Shown in pieces: positions 16,581 to 18,917 of a stretch of DNA of 32,000 bases. Position 1 is the first letter of the stretch; each line of letters opens with the position of its first letter. The stretch is from Candidatus Baldrarchaeota archaeon. Lineage in GTDB: Archaea > Asgardarchaeota > Baldrarchaeia > Baldrarchaeales > DXJG01. The position numbers and the translations under genes were made by a program. Under the pieces are notes generated by a model. That model searched no databases. It saw nothing but the letters and a program-made list of their open reading frames with translations, and was not told the DNA's origin. The stretch covers positions 136,907-168,906 of the forward strand of contig DXJG01000002.1 in the NCBI GenBank assembly GCA_019056805.1. Direction: 5' to 3'.

Positions 16581-18265
16581 TCAGCATCTATTTCTTTTAT
16601 GCTTTAACGCTTCTCTGACGAAGGCAACATATATCGGAGACGGCCTATTAGGTCGACTCTTAAATTCAGGGTGAAACTGGACTCCTACAATCCATGCGTT
16701 ATTTGCAAGTTCTATTGCATTCACAATGTTACCCGTTTCATCATACGCTGAAATAACCAGATTTTTATTCTCTGCTTTTTCTGCATATTCTTTTATAATG
16801 TGATATCTGTGTCTAAATCTCTCCACAACTACTTCTTTTCCATAAGCTTCAAAAAGCTTAGTTCCCCTTTTTATGTAGATTTTATGGCCGCCCAACCGCA
16901 TGGTTCCACCTTTCGCTTCTATCTTACGTTGTTCTGGAAGCATATCAACTACGGGATGTGGTGTATTGGGATCTATCTCCGTGCTATTTGCATCTTTTAA
17001 TCCAAGCATTCTTCTACAAAATGCAATAAATAAAAGCTGAGCACCGAAACAAATTCCTAAAAACGGCTTTCCCTTAAGTATGGCATAGTCGGCTGTTGCA
17101 ATCATGCCCTCCACACCCCTCTTACCGAAACCAGGTGTAAGAAGAATACCGTCAAAATTATCCAACATACTTATTTTTTCCGGATTTTCTTCAAATACTT
17201 CTGTTTCAATCCATTCAAGTAACACTTTTACTCCTAGGTGTGCACCTGCATGTTTTAAAGCCTCATTTATTGAAATATAACTATCAATAATAGCTGTATA
17301 TTTGCCAGGCATTGCTATTTTTACGGTTTCGTTGTACGTTTTGAATTTTTCTACGACTTGTTTCCAGCTTTCAAGCGAAGGAGTACGATTTTGGAGATTT
17401 AAAATTCTAGATAAATATTCTCCAAGCCCCTGTTCCTCAAAAAGAAGCGGTAATTCGTAAATACAATCAGTATCAGGGTTTGAAATTACAGCTTCAACGG
17501 GTACATTACAATATAGACTAATTTTTTCTCTTATTTTTTGATCAAGAGGAATTTCAGCCCTACCAACAATAACATCAGGTTGAAGTCCCATGCCTTGGAG
17601 AACTTTAACACTATGTTGAGTAGGTTTTGTTTTGAGTTCTCTAACAGTCTTAAGGAATGGGAGAAGAGTAACATGTACTAATGCGGTATTTTCTCTAGGT
17701 TCTTCTAATCGAAATTGTCTTATAGCTTCGAGAAAAGGCATGGCTTCTATATCTCCTACAGTCCCCCCTACCTCAACAATCAATATATCTGGATTCTCTC
17801 TCTTAGCAACTTCCCTAATCCTGTTTTTTATTTCATCGGTAATATGTGGTATTATTTGAACAGTTTTACCAAGATATTCTCCAACTCTTTCACGAAGAAT
17901 AACCGATAAGTAAACCTGTCCACTAGTAATATTATTGCATGGATGAATATTTTTATCTAAAAATCTTTCATAAGTCCCAAAATCTTGATCAATTTCGGAT
18001 ATTCTAAATTTAAAACCATCAGCTGGTGTGAATTCCCAAACATCTTCAGTTACAAAAACCTCCCCATGTTCGATTGGATTAAGAGTACCTGGGTCAACAT
18101 TCAAATTCCCCCACGGCTAGAAATACTCTAGCCGCGTTAGGGGTCGATTTTTATAGCATCAACACTAAACCCTCTAAATTGGAAAAGTTTGGCAATCGAA
18201 GCAACAGTAACACCCTTACCAATACCAGACATAACTCCTCCTGTTATAAATATGTATTTTGTCAA
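16581..18265 (-). CDS. pyrG: CTP synthase, two exons (18265-18138 and 18105-16581), 550 aa after splicing
   Basis: Exon 1 from TTG 18265 (GAGGTG RBS): [42 protein letters not shown] plus UA; exon 2 U plus [18 protein letters not shown]..., [10 protein letters not shown], glutaminase FLGICFG and QFHPEF. The ORF track starts at 18104 and misses exon 1. Confidence 0.97.
18106..18137 (-). other. 32-nt bulge-helix-bulge (BHB) mRNA intron in pyrG
   Basis: Minus strand: UCGA-CCCC-UA|A-CGCGGCUAGA-GUAUU-UCUAGCCGUG-GGGG-AA|U-UUGA. 4-bp CCCC/GGGG central helix, two 3-nt bulges, 10-bp intron stem, 4-bp exon helix; splicing yields GAC CCC UAU UUG AAU (DPYLN). Confidence 0.93.
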
Positions 18266-18406: not shown

Positions 18407-18483
18407 TGCGGGATGATATTACGACGGTCTCATGAGCTTTCATTGTTTCTTAGCAAGGATGAGAAATGGGCAGCATGACCGCA
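18407..18483 (+). ncRNA. Box C/D guide sRNA, predicted 2'-O-methylation of LSU C2590-equivalent
   Basis: TGCGG/CCGCA terminal stem; C-like ATGATAT 18413-18419; guide ttacgacggtct 18419-18430; D' ATGA 18432-18435; C' ATGAGAA 18459-18465; D ATGA 18475-18478. Guide pairs over 12 nt (one G-U) with recalled LSU AGACCGUCGUGA. Confidence 0.82.
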
Positions 18484-18594
18484 CTAAATACTACTTTTTA
18501 AATTTTGAATGCTCTTATGCAAAAAGAAGTAACCTATAAAAAGGCGGTTACTAAAATTTTACGATAAAATTTGAGATGGGTAATATTTGATAGG

Positions 18595-18653
18595 TGGCTC
18601 ATCCAAATGCCTTTTCATCACTTTTCAGTGCCGGAAGTATTAATCATCGACCA
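18595..18653 (-). ncRNA. Box C/D guide sRNA, predicted 2'-O-methylation of LSU A1938-equivalent
   Basis: Minus strand: tggtcg-ATGATTA-atacttccggca-CTGA-aaa-GTGATGA-aaaggcatttgg-ATGA-gcca, classic C-D'-C'-D spacing with 12-nt guides; D guide is complementary to CCAAAUGCCUU. Confidence 0.88.
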
Positions 18654-18676
18654 AGTAATTTACACTGTTTGAACTA

Positions 18677-18685
18677 GTTAAAAAG
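18677..18685 (-). promoter_or_regulatory. Putative TATA box for the minus-strand sRNA
   Basis: CTTTTTAAC on the minus strand, 24-32 nt upstream of 18653. Confidence 0.45.
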
Positions 18686-18917
18686 CTATCTCATTTTTGT
18701 AATTATTCATAATTAACTTAAAAACAGATGGGAACATTACATTATTCTCTTAGGTTTTGCTTAAAATGTTTAAAGTGGAATAGTCATTCTAATGAGGTTT
18801 CTTGAGGTACTAATCTATTGTTTTTGTTGGTATGATTTTTCTGAGAGAGTCTAAGAACATGTTACATGAAAACGGAAAACTTATAAGAGAAAAAGTAGCA
18901 AAATGTGAGGGATTTAA

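Follow-up and report, generated by a model that had tools for sequence, protein, structure and literature searches.

A predicted box C/D sRNA in the pyrG–purA spacer of a Baldrarchaeia-type Asgard archaeon with a guide to the C2590-equivalent site of 23S rRNA

Archaeal box C/D sRNAs carry a C box (RUGAUGA), a D box (CUGA) and internal C′ and D′ boxes, and the target nucleotide lies opposite the fifth nucleotide upstream of D′ or D. In the supplement of a previous survey, 23S C2864 (alignment numbering) is listed four times as a predicted target, and Pyrobaculum sR30 is among the Thermoproteota sRNAs assigned to it (Dennis et al., 2015; PMC4644070). The same study gives the RNA-seq-detected Ignicoccus hospitalis sRNA IHOsR27 as ...GAUGAUCGAACGACGGUCUCCUGA..., and equates alignment position 2880 with E. 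coli 2606 and the A-loop U with E. coli U2552 (Dennis et al., 2015; PMC4644070). Since position 2880 is E. coli 2606, alignment C2864 corresponds to E. coli 2590. In eukaryotes, yeast Cm2959, guided by snR73, is equivalent to human Cm4506 (U35A/B), Arabidopsis Cm2949 (AtU35) and Dictyostelium Cm3292 (PMC8817022). The Plasmodium U35/snR73 homologue PFS17 reads CACGACGGUCUU-CUGA, with the same register upstream of D′ (PMC2656528).

No description of box C/D guide RNAs of Asgard archaea was found in the literature searched. Here, we analyzed a 32,000-nt stretch of contig DXJG01000002.1 from a Candidatus Baldrarchaeota archaeon (the window), in which positions 18407–18483 very probably represent the gene for an Asgard (Baldrarchaeia-type) box C/D sRNA that guides methylation of the C2590 equivalent, judging from sequence comparison.

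Anatomy and genomic context of the sRNA

Direct reading of the sequence demonstrated a complete box C/D anatomy at 18407–18483 (+), 77 nt long, with the layout UGCGG-G-AUGAUAU-UACGACGGUCUC-AUGA-(20 nt)-AGGAUGA-GAAAUGGGCAGC-AUGA-CCGCA (Table 1). The parse was set by the canonical archaeal guide length of 12 nt, and both guides measured exactly 12 nt, in agreement with the 10–12 nt expected of archaeal C/D sRNAs. The spacer of 20 nt and the total length of 77 nt are outside the usual archaeal ranges of 3–9 nt for the D′–C′ loop and 50–70 nt for the whole RNA; longer D′–C′ spacers are known among accepted C/D members, such as the 22 nt of L110. The initial annotation had described a 23-nt insert between D′ and C′ that makes the RNA longer than the minimal form. 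The extra length was retained, but the insert was corrected to 20 nt, the C′ box having been placed 3 nt too far downstream. The boxes also deviate from the consensus in that the C box is without the second GA and both D and D′ are AUGA rather than CUGA. A reading on the minus strand was dropped because no box C-like motif was present in register.

Table 1. Coordinates of the predicted sRNA, its parts and neighboring elements in the window.
Feature	Position	Strand	Remarks
Whole box C/D sRNA	18407..18483	+	77 nt; covariance model from the four orthologues scores 100–106 bits, at the orthologous site only
Terminal stem, 5′ half (UGCGG)	18407..18411	+	pairs with 18479–18483; 5/5 pairs invariant in four species
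Terminal stem, 3′ half (CCGCA)	18479..18483	+	partner of 18407–18411
Linker, 1 nt, variable	18412	+	precedes the C box; would give the 3-nt k-turn bulge
C box AUGAUAU	18413..18419	+	AUGAUUA in three other species; UGAU core invariant
D′ guide UACGACGGUCUC, 12 nt	18420..18431	+	position 5 is G18427, predicted to select the target C
D′ box AUGA	18432..18435	+	invariant in four species
D′–C′ spacer, 20 nt	18436..18455	+	19–22 nt in relatives under the same parse; possible closing stem GCU/AGC
C′ box AGGAUGA	18456..18462	+	invariant; one mismatch to RUGAUGA
D guide GAAAUGGGCAGC, 12 nt	18463..18474	+	positions 1–11 invariant in four species
D box AUGA	18475..18478	+	invariant; A1 can pair with C-box U6 in three species
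Promoter-like element TTTTGCGATAGATATTTTAA	18365..18384	+	TATA-like ATATTTTAA centred ~27 nt before the 5′ stem
T5 run	18495..18499	+	possible archaeal termination signal
Convergent partner sRNA	18597..18651	-	Rfam sR17 at 30.3 bits, below the gathering score

The 5-bp terminal stem named in the initial annotation was recovered, with UGCGG (18407–11) pairing with CCGCA (18479–83), and its description of k-turn-like C/D ends was likewise borne out by the invariant UGAU and UGA cores, between which G·A, A·G and U·U pairing is possible. According to established k-turn rules, the C/D motif would consist of the terminal stem, a 3-nt bulge (N-A-U), sheared G·A and A·G pairs with the D box, and then a U·U pair. 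Position 6 of the C box and position 1 of the D box canonically form G-C in a k-turn; in this RNA they are U-A in three species and A·A in the source species. The U-A replacement looks like a habit of the lineage, as the same AUGAUUA/AUGA pair occurs in the convergent neighbor. The C and D boxes can be read as a k-turn-forming pair that is a sequence variant of the consensus.

In the internal motif, the D′ box AUGA runs straight into GC(U), and AGC stands before A-AG-GAUGA. A short closing stem at D′/C′ would give a true k-turn instead of a k-loop. This GCU/AGC stem is weak: its G-C and C-G pairs are invariant in the four species and one further pair is compensatory (G-C vs. A-U); the folding energy of the internal hairpin was no better than that of shuffled sequences. 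That compensatory pair was the only one in the whole four-species alignment. The terminal stem never varies and therefore provides no covariation support.

A strict descriptor, written as a regular expression, asked for a C box of the RTGAT type, two guides of 11–13 nt, D′ and D boxes of the form NTGA, and at least 4 bp in the terminal stem. The 1.92-Mb genome was matched twice, at this RNA and at its convergent neighbor, and the reversed genome not at all, indicating that the arrangement did not arise by chance from AT-rich DNA (35% G + C). No Rfam family matched 18407–18483 either at the gathering score or at E ≤ 10, which weighs little because the C/D models of Rfam are guide-specific. No ORF of at least 40 aa overlaps the pyrG–purA spacer. 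Thermophiles usually carry dozens of C/D sRNAs; with only two strict-descriptor loci genome-wide, either this lineage has generally degenerate C/D boxes or its repertoire is small.

The 650-nt intergenic region is flanked by the CTP synthase gene pyrG on the minus strand and the adenylosuccinate synthetase gene purA on the plus strand. The proposal that this spacer holds two convergent sRNAs was supported, since a second sRNA was found at 18597–18651 (-) and both loci were descriptor matches. The neighbor had C/D matches in Rfam below threshold, and it is best read with AUGAUUA as the C box rather than the CGAUGAU of the Rfam alignment, which results in guides of exactly 12 nt. Both RNAs belong to the same conserved locus and share the AUGAUUA C box and AUGA D box, a 12-nt guide spacing and, upstream, a similar GATAG..TTTTTAA element, whereas the neighbor differs in its minimal 55-nt form, a D′–C′ loop of 3 nt and other guides. 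The element upstream of the neighbor, GATAG-N2-TTTTTAA, lies ~25 nt before it (window 18652–18700) and is common to the 77-nt RNA. Neither sRNA gene is annotated in the MAGs. The pyrG frame is itself interrupted: a stop closes the N-terminal 42 codons (18138–18265), and a palindromic insert of 32 nt comes next, at 18106–18137 (-).

BLAST and covariance model searches recovered a single orthologue per genome from the other three species of the genus (G001, G002 and G003) and none elsewhere in the five-genome class. A BLAST match in the sister family (G004) was rejected as chance because it is located inside a coding region; covariance model R1 found no orthologue in that genome, which also lacks GACGGTCTNNTGA. 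In the public genome collection, contigs match the G001, G003 and G002 orthologues identically over the stretch shown. The order pyrG, 77-nt sRNA, convergent sRNA, purA is kept in 4/4 species. The boxes were conserved in these relatives, as the initial annotation had anticipated for a genuine sRNA: in the four-species alignment, the stem, the D′, C′ and D boxes, the UGAU of the C box and the guide cores are invariant, while the flanks drift. Variation is confined to the linker base, C-box positions 6–7 with guide position 12, and the spacer (19–22 nt). Conserved boxes and guides next to a drifting spacer and flanks are what a guide RNA should show. The upstream element TTTTGCGATAGATATTTTAA is also conserved in 4/4 species, and the stretch separating it from the RNA drifts; GATAGCTTTTTAA, which is similar to TTTTGCGATAGATATTTTAA, is located at a similar distance upstream of the neighboring sRNA. 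We infer that TTTTGCGATAGATATTTTAA acts as a promoter.

Targets of the two guides

The source genome has no assembled 16S or 23S rRNA, and the target of the D′ guide was checked in the 23S rRNA of the congener G003. The source-species guide UUACGACGGUCU pairs with AGACCGUCGUGA of this rRNA through 11 Watson–Crick pairs and one G·U pair, and the 23S sequence found by the D′ guide is UAGACCGUCGUGA. The predicted complementarity to 23S rRNA is thus present in the congener, and the 12 bp claimed initially hold there; all four species retain a core of 10 Watson–Crick pairs, formed by guide positions 2–11 with AGACCGUCGU. The two 5′-most pairs occur in the source species only, one of them through the last base of the C box. 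The AGACCGUCGU sequence is near-universal in 23S rRNA. When guide cores were shuffled, 598 of 200,000 had a perfect 10-nt complement in the G003 23S rRNA (0.3%; probability 0.003).

Counting in the G003 23S rRNA from the A-loop U (E. coli U2552) within ...GUUGUUCGCCCAUUAAAGGGGAACGUGAGCUGGGUUUAGACCGUCGUGAGACAGG... places guide position 5 opposite E. coli 2590, the same nucleotide that the initial annotation had derived by the D′ + 5 rule. Because yeast Um2921 is U2552 and the offset from the A-loop is equal (2959 - 2921 = 2590 - 2552 = 38), the target is yeast C2959. The claimed equivalence to yeast Cm2959/snR73 and to the human U35 site agreed with the published table (PMC8817022) and with the register of PFS17 (PMC2656528).

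The G003 23S rRNA (L034, contig G003:C116; 3632 nt) contains an insert of ~600 nt at ~2200–2800 with 29–42% G + C, and the rest has ~64% G + C. The insert is probably an intron of the rRNA that may carry an endonuclease ORF, and the G + C content outside it suggests a thermophile. The 350 nt upstream of this 23S rRNA are AT-rich and hold no 16S rRNA, which suggests unlinked rRNA genes.

For the second guide, the initial annotation had named no assignable target, and no convincing one was found in our searches. The best match of the D guide in the G003 23S rRNA was 8/10 with central mismatches, or a run of 7 bp. The 7-bp run, GCCCAUU, lies in the A-loop helix, on its 3′ side, with the D′ target 32 nt further downstream; pairing there would put E. 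coli C2558 at the +5 position. M. kandleri sR64 is listed for the C2558 position, but a match of 7 bp is weak. Every 10-mer match in the genome, perfect or near-perfect, and every 11-mer match in the genus fell within a long ORF.

Among 21 Asgard 16S rRNAs, the best match of the D guide was 9/10, in helix 11 of one unrelated family. Helix 11 was not supported as a target, as a pattern scan of metagenomes gave eight matches, of which none was in rRNA. None of the 18 tRNAs predicted by Aragorn in the source genome matched the D guide. This genome (G000) is 91% complete and yielded only these 18 tRNA genes even with the intron search, most of them intron-containing; many of its tRNA genes must be atypical (with multiple or non-canonical introns, or split) or unassembled. 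As for 16S rRNA, it is assembled in no member of the genus, and the target of the D guide most likely lies in this unassembled rRNA.

Proposed function and rival explanations

In the source genome, the genes for Nop5 and fibrillarin are adjacent, and two genes of the L7Ae family are present. We infer that the RNA is transcribed, assembled into an RNP and used for methylation. In the proposed model, it would be transcribed from its own TATA-like promoter, and its C and D boxes, with the 5-bp terminal stem closing them, would fold into a k-turn, with C′/D′ forming a second k-turn or a k-loop. L7Ae may bind both motifs, on which Nop5 and fibrillarin could then assemble. The 12-nt guide upstream of D′ would pair with 23S 5′-AGACCGUCGU-3′ beside the peptidyl-transferase centre, and fibrillarin would 2′-O-methylate the C opposite guide position 5, which is E. 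coli 2590, yeast Cm2959 and human Cm4506. The second guide presumably directs methylation or an rRNA-folding contact on an unassembled RNA, most likely 16S rRNA.

Double-guide sRNAs have also been proposed to serve as chaperones (Dennis et al., 2015; PMC4644070), and the main role of this RNA might accordingly be that of an rRNA folding chaperone or assembly factor that holds the peptidyl-transferase strand and the site of the orphan guide, with methylation secondary or absent. A D guide that is fully conserved without a canonical target, and that can form seven contiguous pairs with the A-loop helix (3′ strand), would suit such a role. However, the geometry of the D′ duplex is exactly that of methylation, the same site is methylated in eukaryotes (PMC8817022), and seven pairs are weak where the 23S rRNA has ~64% G + C outside the insert, and we therefore consider a mainly chaperoning role improbable.

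Its place in the 650-nt pyrG–purA spacer, on the purA strand, could alternatively make the element an L7Ae-binding or other cis-regulatory site of the divergent pyrG/purA promoter region rather than a trans-acting guide, and binding of L7Ae to mRNA k-turns has been reported (PMC5539422). This is highly improbable, since 435 nt, including an sRNA in the opposite orientation, separate the end of the element from purA, its conserved parts are exactly two 12-nt guides and four boxes, and its guide is the same as in unlinked crenarchaeal sRNAs. The degenerate boxes, and the frequency of short ATGA motifs at 35% G + C, would permit a mere chance resemblance in AT-rich spacer DNA; yet the reversed genome was free of descriptor matches, the rRNA match has a probability of 0.003, and the conservation of guides and boxes across four species against drifting flanks effectively refutes chance, which is the least credible of these explanations.

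Under the preferred reading as a methylation guide, the RNA reveals no new mechanism. The guided site is already known, being predicted in Crenarchaeota and proven in eukaryotes, and the box variants and long spacer are lineage-specific. What the RNA would add is a concrete, predicted Asgard guide for a ribose methylation site of the peptidyl-transferase centre that is common to Crenarchaeota, yeast, human, plant, Dictyostelium and Plasmodium, and hence one more observation on which rRNA modifications are older than eukaryotes. In addition, a natural k-turn variant with U-A or A·A in place of G-C, AUGA D boxes and a long spacer could be used to probe the tolerance of L7Ae/Nop5 assembly.

Archaeal and eukaryotic counterparts

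The D′ guide of IHOsR27, AACGACGGUCUC, is identical in 3/4 of the Asgard orthologues, and the source species differs at the first base. The Asgard RNA and IHOsR27 have in common a guide between C and D′, 12-nt spacing and a +5 target, and in the Asgard RNA the D′ guide ACGACGGUCU is in register with D′, as in IHOsR27-type sRNAs. A C-box pattern, TGAT-N3-ACGACGGTCT-N-[AC]TGA, was found in 71 contigs of a collection with one genome per GTDB species that is dominated by bacteria, and 66 of these contigs are archaeal. They include Desulfurococcales, Sulfolobales, Ignisphaera, Thermofilaceae and others, together with three Asgard contigs. Most of these contigs combine a short spacer with the second guide UCUUCUCUUCAC.

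The crenarchaeal family accordingly has UCUUCUCUUCAC as the second guide, spacers of mostly 3–12 nt, and canonical UGAUGA C and CUGA D boxes, whereas the Asgard RNA has AAAUGGGCAGC as the second guide (GAAAUGGGCAGC in the source species), a spacer of 19–22 nt and AUGAUUA/AUGA boxes. Some crenarchaeal members use AUGA as D′, or their D′–C′ spacer contains a small hairpin (CCUUCGGGG) or measures 22 nt, and a CAUGA or AAUGA variant of D′ occurs in L057, L061, L074, L078 and L101; AAUGA is the D′ of the Sulfolobales L057, L061 and L101. In Desulfurococcales (L047, L084, L085, L092, L095 and others), the D′–C′ loop is often CCUUCG(A)GGGG, a UUCG-type mini-hairpin that would turn the k-loop into a k-turn.

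A phylum-wide pattern with one extra N, which does not cover the source genus, gave five matches compared with one in the control. Two of the loci, L120 and L121, belong to two other Asgard families and are plausible complete C/D sRNAs with the same guide core. L120 (G117:C14, ~88860–88952, minus strand) reads AUGAUGA-GUAAGACGGUCUC-CUGA, followed by a spacer of ~37 nt that contains a 6-bp stem (AGUUUA/UAAACU), and then by AUGACGA-12 nt-CUGA. For the same site in 23S rRNA, it is the second C/D candidate with a long spacer.

The eukaryotic SNORD35 members (U35, snR73, AtU35 and PFS17) address the same rRNA nucleotide as the Asgard D′ guide and also have a long D′–C′ region. In the Rfam search, the Asgard RNA did not match the SNORD35 family, and this gave no similarity beyond the guide. 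In contrast to the Asgard RNA, SNORD35 members have one functional guide and poorly conserved C′/D′ boxes, are bound by Snu13, Nop56 and Nop58, and are often intron-encoded. As a universal rRNA sequence dictates the guide, shared ancestry with IHOsR27 or U35 is indistinguishable from convergence. It is doubtful that the Asgard RNA is a true orthologue linking IHOsR27-type sRNAs and U35/snR73 in one guide lineage that passed through eukaryogenesis. If it were, its long, variable spacer and relaxed boxes would represent a eukaryote-like loosening already present in Asgard archaea.
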